A stretch of DNA of 64,000 nucleotides, from NCBI RefSeq assembly GCF_039541115.1, contig NZ_BAABFP010000007.1:558001-622000 (forward strand), read 5' to 3'. Positions 2,491 to 58,078 of this stretch are shown piece by piece. Position numbers and translations under genes: made by a program. The notes below the pieces were generated by a model, which had not been told where the DNA came from, made no database searches, and was given only the letters and a program-made list of their open reading frames with translations. This DNA is from Angustibacter luteus (GTDB lineage: Bacteria; Actinomycetota; Actinomycetes; Actinomycetales; Angustibacteraceae). Each line of letters begins with the position of its first letter. Position 1 is the first letter of the stretch.

Positions 2491-3224
2491 GTGGCGTGAG
2501 CGCACCGCTGACCGTGGTGACGGGCGGCAGTCGCGGCATCGGTGCCGCGATCTGCGAGCGCCTCGCCAGCGACGGGCACGACGTCGTGGTCGGGTACCGG
2601 ATCGACGGGGCTGCCGCCGAGGAGGTCGCGACCGCAGTGCGGGGGCTGGGCCGCCAGGCCGTCGCGGTGCAGGTCGACACGACGAGCGAGGCCGACGTCG
2701 ACCGGCTGTTCGATGCCGCGGCCGCGCTCGGCACCGTCACCGGACTGGTCAACAACGCCGGCGTCAGCGGCCCGAACGGACCACTCGTGGACGCCGACGC
2801 CGAGGGCATGCGCCGGGCCATCGAGGTCAACGTGCTCGGCTACCTGCTCTGCGCCCGACGGGCCATCCGCGACCTGACGCCGATCGGCTCCGGCGCCATC
2901 GTGAACATCTCGTCGGCGGCGGCCACCCTCGGCAGCCCGGGGCAGTACGTCCACTACGCCGCAACCAAGGCCGCGGTGGACGCGATGACCGTGGGCCTGG
3001 CCAAGGAGGTGGCGGCCACGGGCATCCGGGTCAACTGCGTGGCGCCCGGGATCATCTGGACCGAGTTCCACGCGGACCCGCAGCGGCCGGCCCGGCTCGC
3101 GCCGACGATCCCGCTGGGCCGGTCCGGCCAACCGGACGAGGTGGCCGGCGCGGTGGCGTGGCTCCTCTCGGACGACGCCTCGTTCACCACCGGGGCGGTC
3201 CTTCGGGTCGCCGGCGGGATGTAG
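2487..3224 (+). CDS. Short-chain dehydrogenase/reductase
   Basis: TGGSRGIG, NNAG, YAATK. Confidence 0.93.
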   Translation: MSGVSAPLTVVTGGSRGIGAAICERLASDGHDVVVGYRIDGAAAEEVATAVRGLGRQAVAVQVDTTSEADVDRLFDAAAALGTVTGLVNNAGVSGPNGPLVDADAEGMRRAIEVNVLGYLLCARRAIRDLTPIGSGAIVNISSAAATLGSPGQYVHYAATKAAVDAMTVGLAKEVAATGIRVNCVAPGIIWTEFHADPQRPARLAPTIPLGRSGQPDEVAGAVAWLLSDDASFTTGAVLRVAGGM

Positions 3225-4412
3225 CTACCGGCGCAGCTTCGCCAGCCGCAGCGCGGCCTCCTGCAGCACCTCGGGCCGCTTGCAGAACGCGAACCGCACC
3301 AGTGAGCGACCGGCGTCCGGGTCGTCGTGGAACACCCCGACGGGCACCCCGACTACGCCGGCCAGCTCTGGCAGGTCGCGGCACAGGGCCAGCCCGTCGT
3401 CGTACCCGAGGTCGCGCCCGTCCACGACGACGAAGTACGTCCCGGCCGGCGCCATCGGGGTGAACCCCGCGTCCGCCAGTCCGGCGCAGAGCAGGTCCCG
3501 GCCGGCCTGCAACGTCGTGGCCAGCCCGGCGTACACCTCGTCCGGCAGCCCCAGCCCGTGCGCCACGGCCGGCTGGAACGGCCCGGACGCGACGAAGGTC
3601 AGGAACTGCTTGACCGCGCGGACGGCGTCCACCAGCTCGCGCGGGCCGTGCACCCAGCCGACCTTCCAGCCGGTCACCGAGAACGTCTTGCCCGCCGACG
3701 AGATGGTCAGCGTGCGCTCGGCCATCCCGGGCAGCGTGGCGATCGGGAGGTGCTGGCCGCCGGTCGGGCCGTCCGAGAACAGCAGGTGCTCGTAGACCTC
3801 GTCGCTGACCACGAGCGCGCCGTGCTCGCGGGCCAGCGAGGCCACCAGCTCGAGCTCGGCGCGGGTGAAGACCTTGCCGGTCGGGTTGTGCGGGGTGTTC
3901 ATCAGCACCGCCCGGGTGCGCCCGCTGAAGGCGGCACGCAGCTCCGCCTCGTCCACCGCGAAGTCCGGCGCGCGCAGCACGACGGTCCGGCGGACCCCAC
4001 CCGCCAGCGCCACCGACGCGGCGTAGGAGTCGTAGTAGGGCTCGAACACGACGACCTCGTCGCCGGGCTCGACGAGGGCGAGCAGGCTCGCCGCGATCGC
4101 CTCGGTTGCCCCCGCGGTGACCAGCACCTCGGTGTCCGGGTCGACGCTCAGCCCGTAGAACCGCTGCTGGTGCCCGGCGACCGCCTCGCGCAGCTCGGGG
4201 ACGCCGGGGCCCGGCGGGTACTGGTTGCGACCGCCGCGGATCGCGTCGACCGCCGCCTCGAGCACGGACGTCGGCCCGTCGGTGTCCGGGAAGCCCTGGC
4301 CCAGGTTGATGGCGCCGGTCCGCTGAGCGAGCGCGGTCATCTCGGCGAAGATCGTGGTGCCGAAGCCACGCATCCGCTCGACGAGAAATGGAGTACGCGG
4401 CTGCAGGTCCAT
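3225..4412 (-). CDS. PLP-dependent class I/II aminotransferase (YbdL/DapC-like)
   Basis: INLGQGFPD, NTPHNPTG, DEVY, SAGKTFSVTGWKVG. Confidence 0.9.
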   Translation of the reverse strand: MDLQPRTPFLVERMRGFGTTIFAEMTALAQRTGAINLGQGFPDTDGPTSVLEAAVDAIRGGRNQYPPGPGVPELREAVAGHQQRFYGLSVDPDTEVLVTAGATEAIAASLLALVEPGDEVVVFEPYYDSYAASVALAGGVRRTVVLRAPDFAVDEAELRAAFSGRTRAVLMNTPHNPTGKVFTRAELELVASLAREHGALVVSDEVYEHLLFSDGPTGGQHLPIATLPGMAERTLTISSAGKTFSVTGWKVGWVHGPRELVDAVRAVKQFLTFVASGPFQPAVAHGLGLPDEVYAGLATTLQAGRDLLCAGLADAGFTPMAPAGTYFVVVDGRDLGYDDGLALCRDLPELAGVVGVPVGVFHDDPDAGRSLVRFAFCKRPEVLQEAALRLAKLRR

Positions 4413-50729: not shown

Positions 50730-50876
50730 GGCTCGCAGACTAGCCACGAGGCCGACCGGCCCGCACCGCCAGAGTGCGGCCCACGGGCCCGGACGGCTGA
50801 CAGTGTGACGCCCGACCCACCCGTGCGCTGGACTAGCGTCGAGCCGCGACCACCCGACCACCCGAAGGAGCCCGCG

Positions 50877-52340
50877 GTGACCCAGCAGGACGAGCGACGC
50901 GTCGTCGAGGCCGTACCCCAGGGCCTGTTCATCGGCGGTCAGTGGCGGCCGGCGTCCGACGGCGCCGAGCTGAAGGTGCTCGACCCCTCCACCGAAGAGG
51001 TGCTGACCACCGTCGCCGACGCCTCGGTGGCCGACGGCCGCGAGGCGCTGGACGCTGCGGTTGCCGCGCAGGCGGGGTGGGCCGCCACGCCGCCGCGCGA
51101 CCGCGGCGAGATCCTGCGCGCGGCCTACGAGAAGGTCACCGAGCGCGCGGAGGACCTCGCGCTGCTGATGACGCTCGAGATGGGCAAGCCGCTGAAGGAG
51201 GCGCTGGGCGAGATCACCTACGGCGCCGAGTTCTTCCGGTGGTTCTCCGAGGAGGCCGTGCGCATCTCCGGTCGCTGGTCGACGGCCCCGAACGGCGCCA
51301 CCCGGCTGCTCACCATGAAGCAGCCCGTGGGGCCGTGCCTGATGATCACGCCCTGGAACTTCCCGCTCGCGATGGGCACCCGCAAGATCGGCCCCGCCAT
51401 CGCGGCCGGCTGCACGATGGTGGTCAAGCCGGCGTCCCAGACCCCGCTGACCATGTACGCGCTCGCCCAGATCCTCACCGAGTGCGGGCTGCCGGACGGC
51501 GTCCTCAACGTGGTGACGACGTCCCACACCGGCGACGTGATGGAGCCGCTGATCCGCGACCCCCGGCTGCGCAAGCTGACCTTCACCGGGTCCACGCCGG
51601 TCGGCCGCCGGCTGGTCGAGCAGTCGGCCGAGGGCCTGCTGCGGGTGTCGATGGAGCTCGGTGGGAACGCCCCGTTCATCGTCTTCGGCGACGCCGACCT
51701 GGACCGCGCCGTGGACGGCGCCATGCTCGCCAAGATGCGCAACATCGGCGAGGCCTGCACCGCGGCGAACCGGTTCATCGTGCACGAGTCGGTCTCGGCC
51801 GAGTTCTCCGCCCGGCTGGCCGAGCGGATGGGCGCGCTCACCGTCGGTCGGGGGACCGAGGACGGCGTGGACGTCGGTCCGCTGATCGACGGCACCCAGC
51901 GGGACAAGGTGGCCGAGCTCGTCCAGGACGCCGTCGACCTCGGGGGCAAGGTCCTCACCGGTGGGGGAGCACTGGACGGCAAGGGCTTCTACTTCGCGCC
52001 CACCGTGCTGGGCGACGTCCCGACCCAGGCGCGGGTCTTCGGCGAGGAGATCTTCGGCCCGGTCGCGCCGATCACCACCTTCGCCACGGACGACGAGGCG
52101 CTGGCGCTGGCCAACGACACCGAGTACGGGCTGATCGCCTACGCCTTCACCCGCGACCTGGCCCGAGCCCTCGCCGTCGCCGAGGGCCTGGAGACCGGCA
52201 TGGTCGGGATCAACGCGGGGGTGGTGTCCAACCCGGCGGCGCCGTTCGGCGGCGTCAAGGCCAGCGGGTTCGGTCGCGAGGGCGGCGCCGAGGGCATCGA
52301 GGAGTACCTCGAGACCAAGTACGTCGGCATCGCCCCCTGA
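50877..52340 (+). CDS. gabD: NAD(P)-dependent succinate-semialdehyde dehydrogenase
   Basis: PWNFP, MELGGNAP, RNIGEACTAAN, FGREGG; AAGGAG RBS before GTG 50877. Confidence 0.9.
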   Translation: MTQQDERRVVEAVPQGLFIGGQWRPASDGAELKVLDPSTEEVLTTVADASVADGREALDAAVAAQAGWAATPPRDRGEILRAAYEKVTERAEDLALLMTLEMGKPLKEALGEITYGAEFFRWFSEEAVRISGRWSTAPNGATRLLTMKQPVGPCLMITPWNFPLAMGTRKIGPAIAAGCTMVVKPASQTPLTMYALAQILTECGLPDGVLNVVTTSHTGDVMEPLIRDPRLRKLTFTGSTPVGRRLVEQSAEGLLRVSMELGGNAPFIVFGDADLDRAVDGAMLAKMRNIGEACTAANRFIVHESVSAEFSARLAERMGALTVGRGTEDGVDVGPLIDGTQRDKVAELVQDAVDLGGKVLTGGGALDGKGFYFAPTVLGDVPTQARVFGEEIFGPVAPITTFATDDEALALANDTEYGLIAYAFTRDLARALAVAEGLETGMVGINAGVVSNPAAPFGGVKASGFGREGGAEGIEEYLETKYVGIAP

Positions 52341-52351
52341 CATCCCCGGCG

Positions 52352-52474
52352 TCACCCGTTCGGCCCAATCGCTCGGCGTGTCGGTGGCTGGCTGCCCGGG
52401 AAAGTCGAAGTTCCCGTGCTGGACTAGTCCGTTCGGGTGCATTCGGGTCCGATCGCACTGACCCGAACGGGTGA
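52352..52474. promoter_or_regulatory. Cluster of BldM/WhiI-like 16-bp boxes
   Basis: TCACCCGTTCGGCCCA (52352), TAGTCCGTTCGGGTGC (52425), TGACCCGAACGGGTGA (52459). Confidence 0.6.
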
Positions 52475-52517
52475 GATGCTCACCCACAGGTAGTGAGTTT
52501 CGGTAACTTCCTGCGAC

Positions 52518-52532
52518 GTGACGCTGCGTGCG
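52518..52532. promoter_or_regulatory. BldD-box-like palindrome
   Basis: GTGACGCTGCGTGCG, one mismatch to NTNACNC(A/T)GNGTNAN. Confidence 0.5.
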
Positions 52533-52594
52533 GCTTCAATCGCTCACAGCGATACAGCCCGCCCGGGGCTGCCCCGCATCGCTGAGGAGTGCCG

Positions 52595-52699
52595 ATGAAG
52601 AAGAAGTCCCCTGTCAGCGCGGTCGTTCGCCTCAGTGCGGGCGTGCTCCCCGTGATCACCCTGGTGTCGGTGCTCGGCGCCGGCTCCAAGTGGTGGTGA
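52595..52699 (+). CDS. 34-aa signal-peptide-like micropeptide ending GAGSKWW (candidate precursor)
   Basis: GAGGAG (52584-52589), 5 nt, ATG; MKKKSPVSAVVRLSAGVLPVITLVSVLGAGSKWW*; below the ORF-track size cut-off. Confidence 0.8.
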   Translation: MKKKSPVSAVVRLSAGVLPVITLVSVLGAGSKWW

Positions 52700-52758
52700 T
52701 CGCCGTGCTGACGCGCAGCGAAGACACGCAGTACCTGCCCGGTTACAAGTGGGTCTAG
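52696..52758 (+). CDS. 20-aa micropeptide ending PGYKWV
   Basis: GTGA start/stop overlap with the preceding micro-ORF; MIAVLTRSEDTQYLPGYKWV*; alternative GTG starts at 52690, 52693 and 52705. Confidence 0.6.
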   Translation: MIAVLTRSEDTQYLPGYKWV

Positions 52759-52780
52759 GGCCTCGCGCCCGCTGACACCC

Positions 52781-54946
52781 ATGAAGCGACCCTCGCCCCT
52801 CGCGCTCTACGTCGCCTGCGTCGCCCTGCTGGGCGCGCTCGTGGCGGCGTGGAGCCTGTGGGGTGTCGGTCTCGCGGAGCTGGCCCGTACCGCCCCGAAC
52901 CCGGTGTGGTTCCTGGCGGTCGGGCTGGTTCTGGGCGAGCTCATGCCGATCCCCGTGGCCCGCGGGGACGACGAGACGTCCAACGTCACGATGTCGACCA
53001 CCTTCGCCGTGGCGCTGGTGACCACCGGACCCTTCGCCCTGCTCCTGCTGGTGCACACCATGGCCGTCGCGATCGACGACCTGCGCACCCGCCGGAGCGT
53101 GGCCAAGGTGCTGTTCAACTTCGGCCAGTACGCCGTGTCGTTGGCCGCCGCCCGCGCGGCGTTCTGCGTCATCACCGGCACGAGCTTCCACGCCGGCTAC
53201 ACCCCGCTGGACGCCAGCGAGCTGCCCGCGGCCCTCGTCGCGGGCTTCACGTTCATCATGCTCAACAACGGTCTCGTCGCCGTCGTCGTCGCCCTGGCCA
53301 CCCGCCAGCCGGTGCTGGCGATGCTGCGCGAGGACCTCGCATTCAAGCTCGAGACGTCCAGCGTGCTGCTCGGCCTGGCGCCGGTCGCCGCCGTGCTCGC
53401 CGAGATGAGCGGCTGGCTCCTACCCCTGCTCGCGCTGCCTGTCCTGGCGGTCCGCCGCTCCGCGGCGCTGGCCGTGGCCCGGCAGTCCCAGGCCCTGCGC
53501 GACGCCCTGACCGGACTGGGCAACCGCGAGCTCTTCTTCGGCCGCGCCGAGCGCATGCTCGCCGCCTACGAGCGCACCGAGAGTCCCTTCGCGGTGCTGA
53601 TGATCGACCTCGACCACTTCAAGGACATCAACGACACGCTCGGCCACCAGGTCGGTGACCGGGTCATCCAGACGGTCGGTGCCCGCATCGCGCACGCCGG
53701 CGGCCCCGACGGCTGCGTCGCCCGGCTCGGTGGCGACGAGTTCGCCATCACCATCCCCGGCGTGGACGTCGCGCAGGCGAGCGCCGCCGCCGAGACGCTG
53801 CTGTCCGACATCGTCCGTCCGCTGCACGTCGGCGGCATCCGGATGGTCATCCACGCCAGCGTCGGCATCGCCATGGCCGAGCCCGGCGTCGACGTCACCA
53901 CGCTGATGCAGCGGGCGGACATCGCCCTCTACGAGGCCAAGCGGGACCGCGCCCGGTGGTGCCTGTACGACGTCCAGTCCTCGACGGCGACCCCCGAGCG
54001 CCTCGGGCTGCTCGCCGACCTGCGCGACGCGATCGACCTGCGGCAGATCTCCGTGCACTTCCAGCCGCAGGTCGCGCTCAACGGCGGCCGCGTCTTCGGC
54101 GCCGAGGCGCTCGCGCGCTGGGACCACCCCGAGCGCGGCTCGGTCGCGCCCGAGGAGTTCATCGCCCTGGCCGAGCACGCCGGGCTCATCGACCAGGTGA
54201 CCGACATCGTCCTCGAGGAGTCGCTGGACGCGCTGGCCAGCTGGTCCCAGATGGGCATCGCCGCCCGCGTCTCGGTGAACCTGTCGGCCCGGCAGCTGGC
54301 CGACCTGGGGCTGCCCGAGCGGTTGCGTGACGCGTTGCGCCGGCACGGTGTCTCGCCGGGCCAGCTGACCGCGGAGGTGACCGAGGGCAGCATCATGGGC
54401 GACCCCCGGCGGGCCGCGCAGGTGCTGCACGAGCTCCGCCAGGAGGGCATCCGGATCGCCGTCGACGACTTCGGCACCGGCTACTCCTCGCTGGCCTACC
54501 TGCAGCGCCTGGACCTCGACGAGCTGAAGATCGACCGCAGCTTCGTGCAGTCGATGGGCGCCGTCTCGCGGGACGACGTGCTCGTCCGCTCGATCATCGA
54601 GCTCGCGCACAACCTCGGCCTGTCGGTGGTCGCCGAGGGCGTCGAGACCCCGGGGCAGGTCGAACGACTGCGCGAGCTGCAGTGCGACGCCGCCCAGGGC
54701 TACCACCTCGGTCGGCCGATGGACCGCGAGATGATGACCGCCTGGCTGCGTCGCGACACCATGCTCGAGCCCCTGCGGCTGCCCGAGGAGGACCACAGCG
54801 AGGACACCCTGCACGGTCTCGTGCAGGGGCTGGCCCACCTCGAGCCGTTCGGCCCGGCCGAGGCCGTGCCCGCCGTCCCGGCGACCGGTCGGTCCGGCAA
54901 GCCGACCCACCTGCGCGCCGTCCGGTCCGGACAGGGAACGGCGTGA
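52781..54946 (+). CDS. Membrane-bound GGDEF-EAL protein with multi-TM N-terminal sensor region
   Basis: ~230-aa hydrophobic N-terminus; DALTGLGNR, RLGGDEF, AEALARW, DDFGTGYSS, KIDRSFV, VAEGVE. Confidence 0.93.
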   Translation: MKRPSPLALYVACVALLGALVAAWSLWGVGLAELARTAPNPVWFLAVGLVLGELMPIPVARGDDETSNVTMSTTFAVALVTTGPFALLLLVHTMAVAIDDLRTRRSVAKVLFNFGQYAVSLAAARAAFCVITGTSFHAGYTPLDASELPAALVAGFTFIMLNNGLVAVVVALATRQPVLAMLREDLAFKLETSSVLLGLAPVAAVLAEMSGWLLPLLALPVLAVRRSAALAVARQSQALRDALTGLGNRELFFGRAERMLAAYERTESPFAVLMIDLDHFKDINDTLGHQVGDRVIQTVGARIAHAGGPDGCVARLGGDEFAITIPGVDVAQASAAAETLLSDIVRPLHVGGIRMVIHASVGIAMAEPGVDVTTLMQRADIALYEAKRDRARWCLYDVQSSTATPERLGLLADLRDAIDLRQISVHFQPQVALNGGRVFGAEALARWDHPERGSVAPEEFIALAEHAGLIDQVTDIVLEESLDALASWSQMGIAARVSVNLSARQLADLGLPERLRDALRRHGVSPGQLTAEVTEGSIMGDPRRAAQVLHELRQEGIRIAVDDFGTGYSSLAYLQRLDLDELKIDRSFVQSMGAVSRDDVLVRSIIELAHNLGLSVVAEGVETPGQVERLRELQCDAAQGYHLGRPMDREMMTAWLRRDTMLEPLRLPEEDHSEDTLHGLVQGLAHLEPFGPAEAVPAVPATGRSGKPTHLRAVRSGQGTA

Positions 54947-54950
54947 TCCG

Positions 54951-55493
54951 GTGCTGGTCGCCGCGCTCGTAGCGCTCGCCGTCCTGACCGTCCCGCTCAG
55001 CGGTGGTCGGTGGTCCGCGCTGGGCTCGCTCCGGTTGCGACACAGCTGGTTGCTGTGGATGGCGCTGCTCGGTCAGGTGCTGGCCCTCGAGGGGCCCGAC
55101 CTGGGTGGTTGGGCCGCTCTGCTGCACGTCGGCACGTACCTGCTGGCGGGCGCCTTCGTCGTCCTCAACCGCGCCATCCCGGGCCTCTGGCTGATCGCGG
55201 CCGGCGGCTTCCTCAACGGCATCACCATCGCGCTGAACGACGGGACGCTGCCGGCGTCGGCGCACGCGCTGCGCGCCGCCGGGCTGCCGGCCGACCACCA
55301 CCAGTTCGTGAACTCGGGCGTGGTCGGCGGAGCGCACCTGCCGTGGCTCGGCGACGTGTTCGCCTGGCCACAGCCGCTGCCGCTGGCCAACGTGTTCAGC
55401 GTGGGCGACGTCCTGCTGGTCGTGGGGGCGTTCTGGGCGATCCACCGGCTGGCCCGGCGCAGCCCGGCCGAGCCGCAGGTCGCCCTCGCGTGA
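54951..55493 (+). CDS. DUF5317-like membrane protein
   Basis: GGRWSAL, LNGITIALNDGTLP, WLGDVF...NVFSVGD; starts 4 nt after the GGDEF-EAL stop. Confidence 0.82.
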   Translation: MLVAALVALAVLTVPLSGGRWSALGSLRLRHSWLLWMALLGQVLALEGPDLGGWAALLHVGTYLLAGAFVVLNRAIPGLWLIAAGGFLNGITIALNDGTLPASAHALRAAGLPADHHQFVNSGVVGGAHLPWLGDVFAWPQPLPLANVFSVGDVLLVVGAFWAIHRLARRSPAEPQVALA

Positions 55494-55505: not shown

Positions 55506-56663
55506 ATGAGTCGCAGCGTGGTCCTGCTCGGGTCGACCGGGTCCGTCGGCGAGCAGGCCGTCGACGTCATCACCCGCAACCCCGACCGCTTCACCGTCAC
55601 CGCCCTGGCCGCGGCCGGGTCCGACGTCCGGCTGCTCGCGGAGCAGGCGGCCCGGCTGCAGGTCCAGCAGGTCGCGGTCGCCCGCGAGGACCGCGCGCCG
55701 GAGCTGCGCGCCGCCCTGGAGGCGGCCGGTGCCGGCGCCGAGGTGCTGGCCGGGCCGGACGCCGCCGAGCAGCTGGCCGCCCGCGGTGACGACCTGGTGC
55801 TGAACGCGATGACCGGCTCCATCGGGCTGCGTCCCACGTTGGCGGCGCTGGCCGCCGGCAGCACGCTCGCGCTGGCCAACAAGGAGTCGCTGATCGTCGG
55901 CGGCCCGCTGGTCAAGGCCGCCGCCGCTCCCGGCCAGATCGTGCCGGTGGACTCCGAGCACTCCGCGCTCGCGCAGTGCCTACGCGGCGGTCGGGAGTCC
56001 GAGGTGGCCCGCCTGGTGCTGACGGCCAGCGGCGGGCCCTTCCGTGGCCGGCCGCGGCACGAGCTGGACGACGTCACCCCGGCCCAGGCGCTGGCCCACC
56101 CCACCTGGGACATGGGCCGGATGGTCACCACCAACTCGGCGACGCTGGTGAACAAGGGCCTGGAGGTCATCGAGGCGCACCTGCTCTTCGACCTTCCGTT
56201 CGAGCGCATCGCCGTCGTGGTGCACCCGCAGTCGATCGTGCACTCGATGGTCGAGTTCACCGACGGCTCGACGCTCGCCCAGTGCTCGCCGCCGGACATG
56301 CGGCTGCCCATCGCGCTCGGCCTGGGCTGGCCGGACCGGGTGCCCGGCGCGGCCGCGGCCTGCGACTGGAGCACCGCGAGCACCTGGGAGTTCCTGCCGC
56401 TGGACGACGAGGCGTTCCCCGCCGTCGCCCTGGCCCGCCGGGTGGGGTCGGCGGGGTCGACGTACCCGGCGGTGTACAACGCGGCCAACGAGGAGTGCGT
56501 GGACGCCTTCCACGACGGCCGGATCCGGTTCACCGCGATCGTCGACACGGTGACGCAGGTGGTCGACGAGCACGAGCCGCCCGCCGGCCCCCTCACCCTG
56601 ACGGACGTGCTCGAGGCCGAACGGTGGGCGCGGGCTCGAGCGCATGAGAAACTGGGAGTATGA
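55506..56663 (+). CDS. dxr: 1-deoxy-D-xylulose-5-phosphate reductoisomerase
   Basis: [38 protein letters not shown]. Confidence 0.97.
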
Positions 56664-58078
56664 CCGTCCTGCTCTACGCCCTCGGCGTGCTGCTGTTCGC
56701 CGTGGGTCTCGCGGCGTCCATCGCGCTGCACGAGATCGGGCACCTCGTCCCCGCCAAGAAGTTCGGCGTCAAGGTCACCCAGTACATGGTGGGCTTCGGC
56801 CCGACGGCCTGGTCGCGCCGGCGCGGTGAGACCGAGTACGGCGTCAAGTGGGTCCCGCTGGGCGGCTACATCCGGATGATCGGCATGTTCCCGCCGAAGC
56901 CCGGACAGGCGCCGGAGGAGGCGCTGCGCGCCACGTCCACCGGGCGGGTCGGGATGATGCTGGACCAGGCGGTGCAGTCCCGCGCCACCCGTCGTGGCAC
57001 GGCGACCGGTGAGCGTCGGGTGGGCATGGCCGAGGCCGCCCGCCAGCAGTCGATGGACGAGATCCAGCCCGGCGACGAGGCCCGCGTCTTCTACAAGCTC
57101 CCCGTGCACCAGAAGATCATCGTGATGCTCGGCGGTCCCACGATGAACCTGCTGATCGGCACCGTCCTGCTGGCGGGCGTCTACATGGCCTACGGCCTGC
57201 CGGTCGACAAGCCCGGAGCGCAGGTCGCCGCGGTCAACGAGTGCGTCGTCAGCGCGGACGCGGCCCAGACCCAGACCACCTGCGCCGCAACCGATCCGAA
57301 GACCCCCGCGTACGAGGCCGGGCTACGCCCCGGGGACACCATCGTGGCCGTCGCCGGCGAGGACGTGCAGAACAGCGCGGCCGTCGGGCGGCTGATCCGG
57401 CCGCGGGTCGGCCAGACCGTGCCCGTCGTCGTCGTCCGGGACGGCGAGCGACTGACGCTGCAGATCACCCCGATCGAGAACACCGTCACCAAGGTGGACG
57501 GCGACGGCCAGCCGGTGCTCGGCGCCGACGGAAAGGCCGAGACCGTGCGCGCCGGCTTCCTCGGCGTGAGCACCCAGACCCCCTCGGTGGTCGAGCGGCA
57601 GTCGATCACGCAGGTCCCCGGCGAGGTCGGGTCGGCGCTGTCGGCCACCGCCGCCGTCGTGGTGCGGATCCCGCAGAAGATGGTCGGCGTGGTGCAGACC
57701 ATGAGCTCGGGCGAGCGGGACCCCAACGGCCCGATCAGCGTCGTCGGCGTCGGCCGGATCGCCGGCGAGGTGGCCAGCGCGGACGGCGCGTGGTCAGCCA
57801 AGCTCGCCACGATGCTCGGCGTCCTCGCCTCGCTGAACTTCGCGCTGTTCGTGTTCAACCTCATCCCGCTGCTGCCGCTGGACGGCGGACACGTGGCGGG
57901 GGCGATCTGGGAGGGTCTGCGACGCACGTGGGCGCGGCTGCGGCACCGGCCGGACCCCGGCCCCGTGGACGTCGCGCGCCTGCTGCCCATCGCCTACGGC
58001 GTCGGGACCGTGCTGATCGTGATGTCCGTGATCCTGATCTACGCCGACATCGTCAATCCCATCAAGCTGCTCGGCTGA
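56660..58078 (+). CDS. M50 intramembrane zinc metalloprotease with PDZ (RseP/Rip1-like)
   Basis: [26 protein letters not shown]. Confidence 0.93.

Follow-up and report, generated by a model that had tools for sequence, protein, structure and literature searches.

The analysed DNA is a stretch of 64,000 nucleotides (nt) of Angustibacter luteus, called the window below (assembly GCF_039541115.1, contig NZ_BAABFP010000007.1, positions 558,001 to 622,000 of the forward strand), and coordinates are given as positions within it. Judged by its sequence conservation, pepA, a gene of 34 amino acids (aa) with an ATG start (52595..52699, plus strand; MKKKSPVSAVVRLSAGVLPVITLVSVLGAGSKWW), is a true gene under purifying selection, and comparison with related loci shows it to behave as a translated micro-protein with one predicted membrane helix. 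By the same comparison, the constant neighbour of this peptide is the predicted MASE9 membrane sensor domain, and neither the type of output domain nor the DUF5317 protein. In the window pepA is followed on the plus strand by three further open reading frames (ORFs): pepB (52696..52758; 20 aa if started at the first GTG, with a 4-nt overlap with the pepA stop), a GGDEF-EAL enzyme of 721 aa (52781..54946, after a gap of 22 nt) and a DUF5317 protein of 180 aa (54951..55493, after a gap of 4 nt). An original prediction, made from the sequence letters, had seen in these genes a peptide-signalling system for cyclic di-GMP (c-di-GMP). The ORF calls on the window confirmed the four same-direction ORFs at the predicted positions. 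Likewise, both micropeptides end in G-x-K-W-x as predicted (GSKWW in pepA, GYKWV in pepB), and the group does lie between a gabD-like aldehyde dehydrogenase gene and dxr. The four genes are best explained as one operon-like membrane signalling module.

For the comparison, 45 loci were collected, 35 of them around relatives of DUF5317 (Demequina, Cellulomonas, Actinotalea and metagenome-assembled genomes) and 10 from relatives of the window; single loci are cited by L numbers. Directly 5' of DUF5317, 44 of the 45 loci have a GGDEF-EAL orthologue; the exception is truncated by the contig end. A six-frame scan for ORFs ending in G[AP]GxK[WF] or similar was run on 45 sources, namely 44 loci and the window. 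All 47 motif-ending ORFs lie on the coding strand, directly 5' of the enzyme gene, and they came from 38 of the 45 sources. Four of the seven sources missed by the scan have no upstream DNA because of a contig end and one is N-masked, while the remaining two hold variants of the peptide that could be recovered by tblastn or profile search. The original prediction had named the absence of conserved micro-ORFs beside homologous DUF5317/c-di-GMP gene pairs as a ground for giving it up, and the scan found the opposite.

The usual pepA orthologue has 36 aa and an ATG start, with the alignment consensus MxKWxxxxxSxVVRxxASAxTLVAVAxVVGAGxKWx, and its C-terminal motif G-A-G-x-K-W-(x)-stop is near-invariant. 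Selection was estimated from 25 distinct sequences of 36 codons: the median ratio of nonsynonymous to synonymous substitution rates was 0.385 in frame, versus 1.03 and 1.79 in the other two frames. Entropy per codon position was 0.60, 0.52 and 0.98, with the third position the highest. A GGAG-type motif was seen 6-10 nt before the start in most orthologues; in the window it is a Shine-Dalgarno-like GAGGAG (52584..52589, plus strand), 6 nt before the pepA ATG. Based on its charge distribution, the peptide is predicted to have its N-terminus inside and its C-terminus outside. Among public proteins, 107 cluster representatives of the peptide, 29-110 aa long, were found at E<=0.001. The match ends no more than 3 residues from the C-terminus in 105 of these 107, so that the position of the stop codon can be regarded as part of the signature of the family. 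Pfam and NCBIfam returned no family for the peptides, and for the four of six exact peptide sequences that were present in the protein collection the sole name was 'hypothetical protein'. A reading of pepA as a detached first helix of the enzyme was rejected, since in every locus examined pepA carries a stop codon and a ribosome-binding site of its own and is separated from the enzyme gene by a gap.

Several loci carry more than one copy of pepA. Locus L057 holds six copies in a tandem array with a 178-nt unit (2760-3781), and their coding sequences are identical save for TAG or TGA stops. The spacers of 65-69 nt have diverged, and each copy has its own ribosome-binding site. Three copies were found in L032 and two each in L016, L026, L098 and L102. 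The enzyme and DUF5317 genes of L057 are fragmented, which may reflect frameshift errors in the assembly or decay.

The original prediction had asked for co-occurrence of the micro-ORF and DUF5317 to be examined, and the outcome was positive. Among 41 relatives of the window's organism, the peptide profile matched 10 genomes, all within the 11 that are positive for DUF5317; in the eleventh, DUF5317 lies on a 3-kb contig that ends short of the place of the peptide. No match was obtained in the 30 relatives that have no DUF5317. A broadened peptide profile was then applied to an evenly drawn sample of 301 genomes of the phylum, in which counts take no account of relatedness. DUF5317 was present in 121 and the peptide in 71 of these genomes, and 66 of the 71 peptide-positive genomes also have DUF5317 (both, 66; peptide alone, 5; DUF5317 alone, 55; neither, 175; with the 10 unpublished genomes left out, 60, 4, 52 and 175). 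The unpublished genomes contribute to counts alone, and none of their sequences was used. Two of the five exceptions with a peptide and no DUF5317 are probably false, as they lie in long open frames. At least 31 of the 57 peptide matches in published genomes (E<=1e-3) lie within 6 kb of a DUF5317 match.

The output domains next to the peptide vary. For five of 20 DUF5317 loci of the phylum, MASE9-type HD-GYP genes were found upstream, in four cases as a pair (one active-looking, one weaker) and in one case as a single gene. Four of these five loci are preceded by a peptide of 24-32 aa of the same build (for example ...LVLTAGAGARH or ...VVAGGKW). In some other lineages the peptide lies downstream of DUF5317 or divergent from it. 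Eighteen loci were taken in which the peptide does not adjoin DUF5317. The gene directly after the peptide could be read in 12 of them, and all 12 encode membrane signalling proteins: one GGDEF-EAL protein, seven histidine kinases and four HD-GYP proteins, ten of which match Pfam MASE9 at E<=0.001. In three of the other six loci the contig ends at this place. Locus L098 contains the full trio with a kinase, namely a peptide gene in two copies, a MASE9-like histidine kinase of 658 aa and a divergent, divergently placed DUF5317. The three-part layout noticed in the window, in which a peptide is joined by a polytopic membrane protein and a polytopic receptor in the membrane, is conserved across loci. 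The earlier suggestion that peptide signalling is wired here to a second-messenger enzyme rather than to a histidine kinase was not supported, because elsewhere members of this peptide family stand before MASE9-histidine kinases and before MASE9-HD-GYP proteins. By sequence comparison, DUF5317 is a frequent but not obligatory neighbour of the peptide.

Some arrangements with unequal gene numbers were also observed. Four Demequina loci (L033, 1660-10935; L044; L036; L059) have two to four paralogous MASE9-GGDEF-EAL genes, one DUF5317 gene and one peptide gene. A second, divergent peptide and GGDEF-EAL pair (L110, G024:C3:347659-347739) is situated far from the only DUF5317 of its genome, which suggests cognate peptide-sensor pairs sharing one DUF5317. 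On the minus strand of L118 (4172-5782), a protein of 536 aa, which combines a MASE9-like membrane region with a C-terminal region resembling a kinase, is convergent to a peptide gene and adjoins an OmpR-type regulator and a HAMP kinase.

The membrane part of the enzyme (residues 1-235; 52781..53485, plus strand) was assessed with Pfam, orthologues and an AlphaFold2 (AF2) model. Against Pfam MASE9 (PF20972) the window's enzyme scored 23.2 bits (E 7.2e-5) with a cut-off of 24.3, and 24 of 31 enzyme orthologues matched at E<=0.01, the best at 2.6e-6. On these profile matches the region is probably a divergent MASE9 domain. Its AF2 model (residues 1-235; predicted local distance difference test, pLDDT, 94.6) has helices at 6-26, 31-54 (kinked), 72-82, 85-103, 107-132, 145-174, 178-209 and 211-234. 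These eight helices agree with the MASE9 pattern of about eight membrane segments, two of them short; the loop charges fit eight crossings with both termini inside, and the outer loops are short. Fusion to signalling outputs, as in MASE9 proteins, was also seen, with GGDEF-EAL in the window and HD-GYP or histidine kinase in related loci. Conserved polar residues (E53, D99, D100, N113, Q116, Y117, N162) lie within the bundle.

The model of this domain resembles the S-components of energy-coupling factor (ECF) transporters. In a VIA wide search, all 14 chains with Z>=8 were ECF S-components. The best match was NikM (4m5c; Z 14.0, root mean square deviation 3.7, 190 of 214 residues), followed by CbiM (13.9), RibU (12.0) and then FolT, BioY, PanT and ThiT. 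BtuM (7.4) and MreD (6.6) came next, and unrelated rows did not exceed 6.2, so the match spans the domain and is separated from unrelated structures. Foldseek also placed the S-component family first, with probabilities up to 1.00 and an E value of 7.7e-3 at best.

The original prediction had read the motifs of both output domains of the enzyme as intact, and this was borne out by Pfam matches and by invariant columns in the 31 orthologues. The GGDEF diguanylate cyclase domain (residues 238-390; 53492..53950, plus strand; PF00990, 141.5 bits) has an intact active site RLGGDEF, with R315, G317, G318, D319 and E320 invariant; reading of the translation found no RxxD site 5 residues upstream. The EAL phosphodiesterase domain (residues 413-646; 54017..54718, plus strand; PF00563, 255.4 bits) contains the motifs EAL, DDFGTG, ELKIDRS, EGVE and QGY, and its residues E442, A443, L444, N500, E532, D562, D563, K583, E619 and Q639 are invariant.

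The 180-aa protein matched DUF5317 (PF17248) with 88.6 bits against a cut-off of 25 and is the sole copy in the genome. Five membrane helices are seen in its AF2 model (pLDDT 90.9), and the conserved loop of residues 96-150, predicted to be extracytoplasmic, contains a small beta element. Among 53 aligned sequences, Q42, H59, Y63, N73, N96, G98, P101, F119, N121, G134, D135, P140, P144, S150, G152 and D153 are invariant. This conserved loop is acidic and by charge counts falls on the outside, with the K/R-rich loops on the inside, so the invariant polar residues should gather at the outer leaflet; because of the peptide's own charges, the C-terminus of pepA should emerge at the outer leaflet too. 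No solved fold matched this protein. Foldseek against the PDB gave nothing at E<=1, a VIA wide search gave helical hairpins with a best Z of 7.2 and did not list LspA, a profile search of PDB sequences had no match at E<=10, NCBIfam has no family for it, and hhalign against the enzyme alignment returned nothing. In the Atlas it matched its own family and a 103-member cluster of fusions between DUF5317 and the major facilitator superfamily (MFS). When 53 DUF5317 sequences were aligned by hhalign with 24 actinobacterial sequences of the signal peptidase LspA, the probability was 0.72% (E 0.078, 23 columns), and the alignment consists of a single motif around D153 (lPLANvFSVGDVLIV versus lphwpVFNvADsAIV). 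No match to Pfam Peptidase_A8 (PF01252) was present at E<=0.01. The role of processing peptidase given to DUF5317 in the original prediction was accordingly not supported, in view of the missing match to a solved fold and the likeness to LspA being confined to this one motif.

The following mechanism is proposed from the sequences and models. The pepA product would insert with its N-terminus inside and its C-terminus outside and stay membrane-resident, serving the MASE9 sensor as an accessory subunit or as a ligand within the membrane. DUF5317 would act at the outer leaflet, binding or modifying the exposed G-A-G-x-K-W end, and in this way would set the amount of peptide that reaches the sensor. 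The state of the sensor would then shift the balance between the GGDEF cyclase and the EAL phosphodiesterase, and with it the cellular level of c-di-GMP. The pepB product, with the same C-terminal motif and no helix, may compete for the same site. In favour of this mechanism, the metal-type S-components NikM and CbiM, whose helix arrangement the MASE9 model shares, also depend on extra small membrane proteins (PMC3945884), and the preprint that defines MASE9 proposes ligand binding within the membrane. We hold this proposal with even confidence. Unlikely is the further idea that MASE9 is an S-component-derived sensor gated in trans by the micro-protein, whose conserved free end would plug or occupy the pocket, with DUF5317 as an outer-leaflet enzyme of new fold that would edit or hand over that end.

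Several observations weigh against a pepA product that stays in the membrane to assist or bind MASE9. Variability within pepA is highest at the residues next to the invariant K-W, as in pheromone families, and tandem copies of a peptide gene are seen more often with secreted precursors than with stoichiometric subunits. In the phylum sample 55 genomes have DUF5317 and no peptide match, and in two of the 20 phylum loci (L096 and L108) DUF5317 is fused to MFS transporters or exporters; the L096 fusion also carries HEAT repeats. The genome of the window has two further MASE9-like domains (G000:C2:214121-214852 and C2:367850-368521), both with no upstream micro-ORF and no DUF5317, so MASE9 can occur without an adjacent peptide. 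As to the fold, a MASE9 profile search of PDB sequences recovered no S-component, and the loop charges suggest that the N-terminus of MASE9 lies inside, which would make helices 1-7 run opposite to those of NikM. With this apparently inverted orientation, the likeness to S-components may be no more than a shared helix arrangement.

The first alternative is signalling of the agr type. Here pepA would be a precursor that DUF5317 cleaves or exports, and a short Trp-containing C-terminal peptide or another fragment would be sensed from outside by MASE9, as a cell-density or autocrine signal. The conserved three-part layout, the tandem gene copies and the variable residues around K-W are in line with this. 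With G-A-G, positions -3 and -1 are occupied by small residues, the pattern of a signal-peptidase site, and DUF5317 has two invariant Asp residues, a His and a Ser at the outer leaflet together with one LspA-like motif; DUF5317-MFS fusions and versions with a histidine kinase receptor occur as well. However, the tail of pepA beyond the membrane helix has 2-5 residues, to which the released piece would be limited, and in three loci (L051, L056, L102) the peptide stops at KW. Such a tail and such endings fit a membrane-resident partner better than a diffusible signal. Moreover, the whole of pepA is conserved and not its end alone, the peptide has no Cys, DUF5317 has no peptidase fold or family match and none to the AgrB family, and the outer loops of MASE9 are short. 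All points considered, signalling of this type seems rather unlikely.

It is also unlikely, though conceivable from the fold, that the module senses a small molecule, with a vitamin- or metal-like ligand bound in an S-component-like pocket of MASE9 and with pepA and DUF5317 serving as capture, gating or assembly factors, so that the peptide would not itself be the signal. The fold match to ECF S-components and the conserved polar residues inside the MASE9 bundle argue for such a pocket. NikM and CbiM also need small membrane proteins, namely N, or K plus L: according to the accessible part of PMC3945884, they 'rely on additional small transmembrane proteins'. Against it stand the missing sequence relation between MASE9 and S-components and the apparently inverted membrane orientation. 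No transporter or cofactor genes were found beside the module in the window, and Rfam showed no riboswitch in the window or 29 related loci.

That pepA is a cis-acting leader, whose translation (for example by pausing at the Lys-Trp codons) tunes that of the enzyme while the peptide itself is functionless, appears very unlikely. Its position just 5' of the sensor gene, with the next ORF starting no more than 161 nt past the peptide stop in the measured loci, would suit a leader, and so would the conserved Trp codon beside the stop and three over-called downstream ORFs that overlap the peptide gene. A leader is, however, difficult to reconcile with selection at the amino-acid level over the full length, with a membrane helix conserved at about 25% identity, with arrays of up to six copies that each have a ribosome-binding site, or with the placement in other lineages, where the peptide is divergent from DUF5317 or follows it, and it leaves the co-occurrence with DUF5317 without explanation. 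Hardly any weight is given to pepA as an unrelated small hydrophobic protein merely travelling with the locus, since its place in front of MASE9 genes is strictly kept with all three types of output and Rfam found no antisense RNA family in the window and the 29 related loci, although type I toxins do resemble pepA in size, single helix and tandem copies.

The second peptide gene of the window, pepB, is confined to its close clade, with copies in the window, L025, L016 (two) and L027. The orthologues start at an ATG 6 nt past the pepA stop that aligns with the GTG at 52705 of the window. This GTG is a likely start and would give a peptide of 17 aa, a length as likely as 20. The C-terminus of pepB is kept as (T/L)PGYKWV or AGRKWG, and the window's version is a hydrophilic peptide ending in PGYKWV. 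The remainder varies in sequence and in length (16-23 aa), the frame is intact in all five copies, and synonymous changes were seen in Pro codons, Gly codons and the stop codon. It appears that pepB descends from a pepA duplicate, has lost the helix and is still translated. The second peptide copy of L026 is full-length.

Alignment of the window with L025 and L016 revealed a conserved block at 52518..52553 (plus strand), about 45-75 nt 5' of pepA, that includes the palindrome ATCGCTCACAGCGAT (52539-52553). By its position and conservation this block may be a promoter or operator element. A scan for sigma-70-type promoters and terminators in the pepA upstream region gave no site. Rfam searches found no family at E<=1 in window positions 52200-53000, no family over 17 phylum loci and tRNAs alone over 12 order-level loci. 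No tandem repeat was present in window positions 52300-52900.

The module is flanked by genes for a class-III aminotransferase (minus strand) and the gabD-like aldehyde dehydrogenase (50862..52337, assigned by Pfam), and, after the DUF5317 gene, by dxr (55506..56663) and an M50 site-2 protease with a PDZ domain (56660..58078). A functional tie to dxr or to the M50 protease was considered and dropped, as their synteny with the module is confined to the window, L025 and L016. Elsewhere in the window's genome, 5' of lspA, an ORF with long Ala/Pro/Lys-rich repeats (AAPAKK-like units) was noticed (L128:275-1438); the repeats are followed by a C-terminal part with four Cys as CxxC...CxxC.

The inputs of the MASE-family membrane sensor domains of c-di-GMP enzymes are a long-standing question. 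The trio of peptide, MASE9 protein and DUF5317 recurs widely in actinobacteria and so provides a concrete lead to how MASE9-type sensors receive their signal, with the micro-protein and its conserved partner as two concrete handles for deletion and mutation. The S-component-like fold suggests where a ligand might be positioned in MASE9. As one input module feeds three output types, what is learned in one organism would apply to many others. If the S-component-derived gating is true, it would represent a widespread, undescribed input device common to c-di-GMP cyclases and phosphodiesterases, HD-GYP enzymes and histidine kinases. In addition, pepA is another functional gene below the usual annotation size.

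The literature search found nothing on the peptide, DUF5317 or PF17248, nothing relevant on micro-proteins with c-di-GMP enzymes or diguanylate cyclases, and no paper tying MASE9 to ECF S-components. Several known systems do show partial likeness. In agr (AgrD, AgrB, AgrC), a gene for a short peptide shares its locus with those for a polytopic membrane protein and a polytopic receptor. The same three-part locus is present here, and versions of the module with kinase output occur. In contrast to agr, pepA and pepB have no Cys for a thiolactone ring, the tail past the pepA helix is 2-5 residues long, the only Pfam family of the 180-aa protein is DUF5317 and not AgrB, and the window has no adjacent response regulator. 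Signal peptidase II LspA (PF01252, MEROPS A8) shares one motif with DUF5317 and, like it, has two invariant Asp residues near the outer membrane face, but the profile probability was 0.72%, Pfam gave no match, LspA was not listed among the fold matches, and pepA has no lipobox Cys.

In MgrB-PhoQ and SafA-PhoQ, a one-helix membrane micro-protein modulates a membrane sensor from within the membrane. The present module shows no homology to these pairs. It differs from them further in that the peptide gene is fixed beside the sensor gene, a third conserved membrane protein takes part and the outputs include c-di-GMP enzymes. The ECF S-components NikM and CbiM have a helix arrangement like that of the MASE9 model (Z 14.0 and 13.9), and NikM, as described in the available portion of PMC3945884, has an extra N-terminal helix and a terminal loop that plugs the pocket. 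The differences are that the module has no T or A components, that its domain is fused to signalling outputs, that there is no sequence similarity and that the orientation is apparently opposite.

A likeness in domain structure exists to the MASE9 c-di-GMP enzymes (PF20972; Thermotoga maritima TM1467, Streptomyces venezuelae HdgA and HdgB), which, as far as the accessible text of their descriptions goes, likewise have a membrane domain of about eight helices before GGDEF-EAL or HD-GYP. The preprint that defines MASE9 (10.1101/2021.11.05.467447) gives, in its accessible part, eight segments with the signal unknown and proposes ligand binding within the membrane; that part does not mention a likeness to S-components. 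Unlike the module of the window, the enzymes in this preprint and in PMC6205966 are not linked, within the accessible sections of both, to a micro-protein or to DUF5317. For S. venezuelae hdgA and hdgB, whose products are the only studied proteins with MASE9, the part of PMC6205966 at hand reports no phenotype, 'likely' for want of an activating signal. These two genes (PMC6205966, same part) form a pair of an active and a degenerate HD-GYP protein, and the same pairing is found 5' of DUF5317 in four of the 20 phylum loci.

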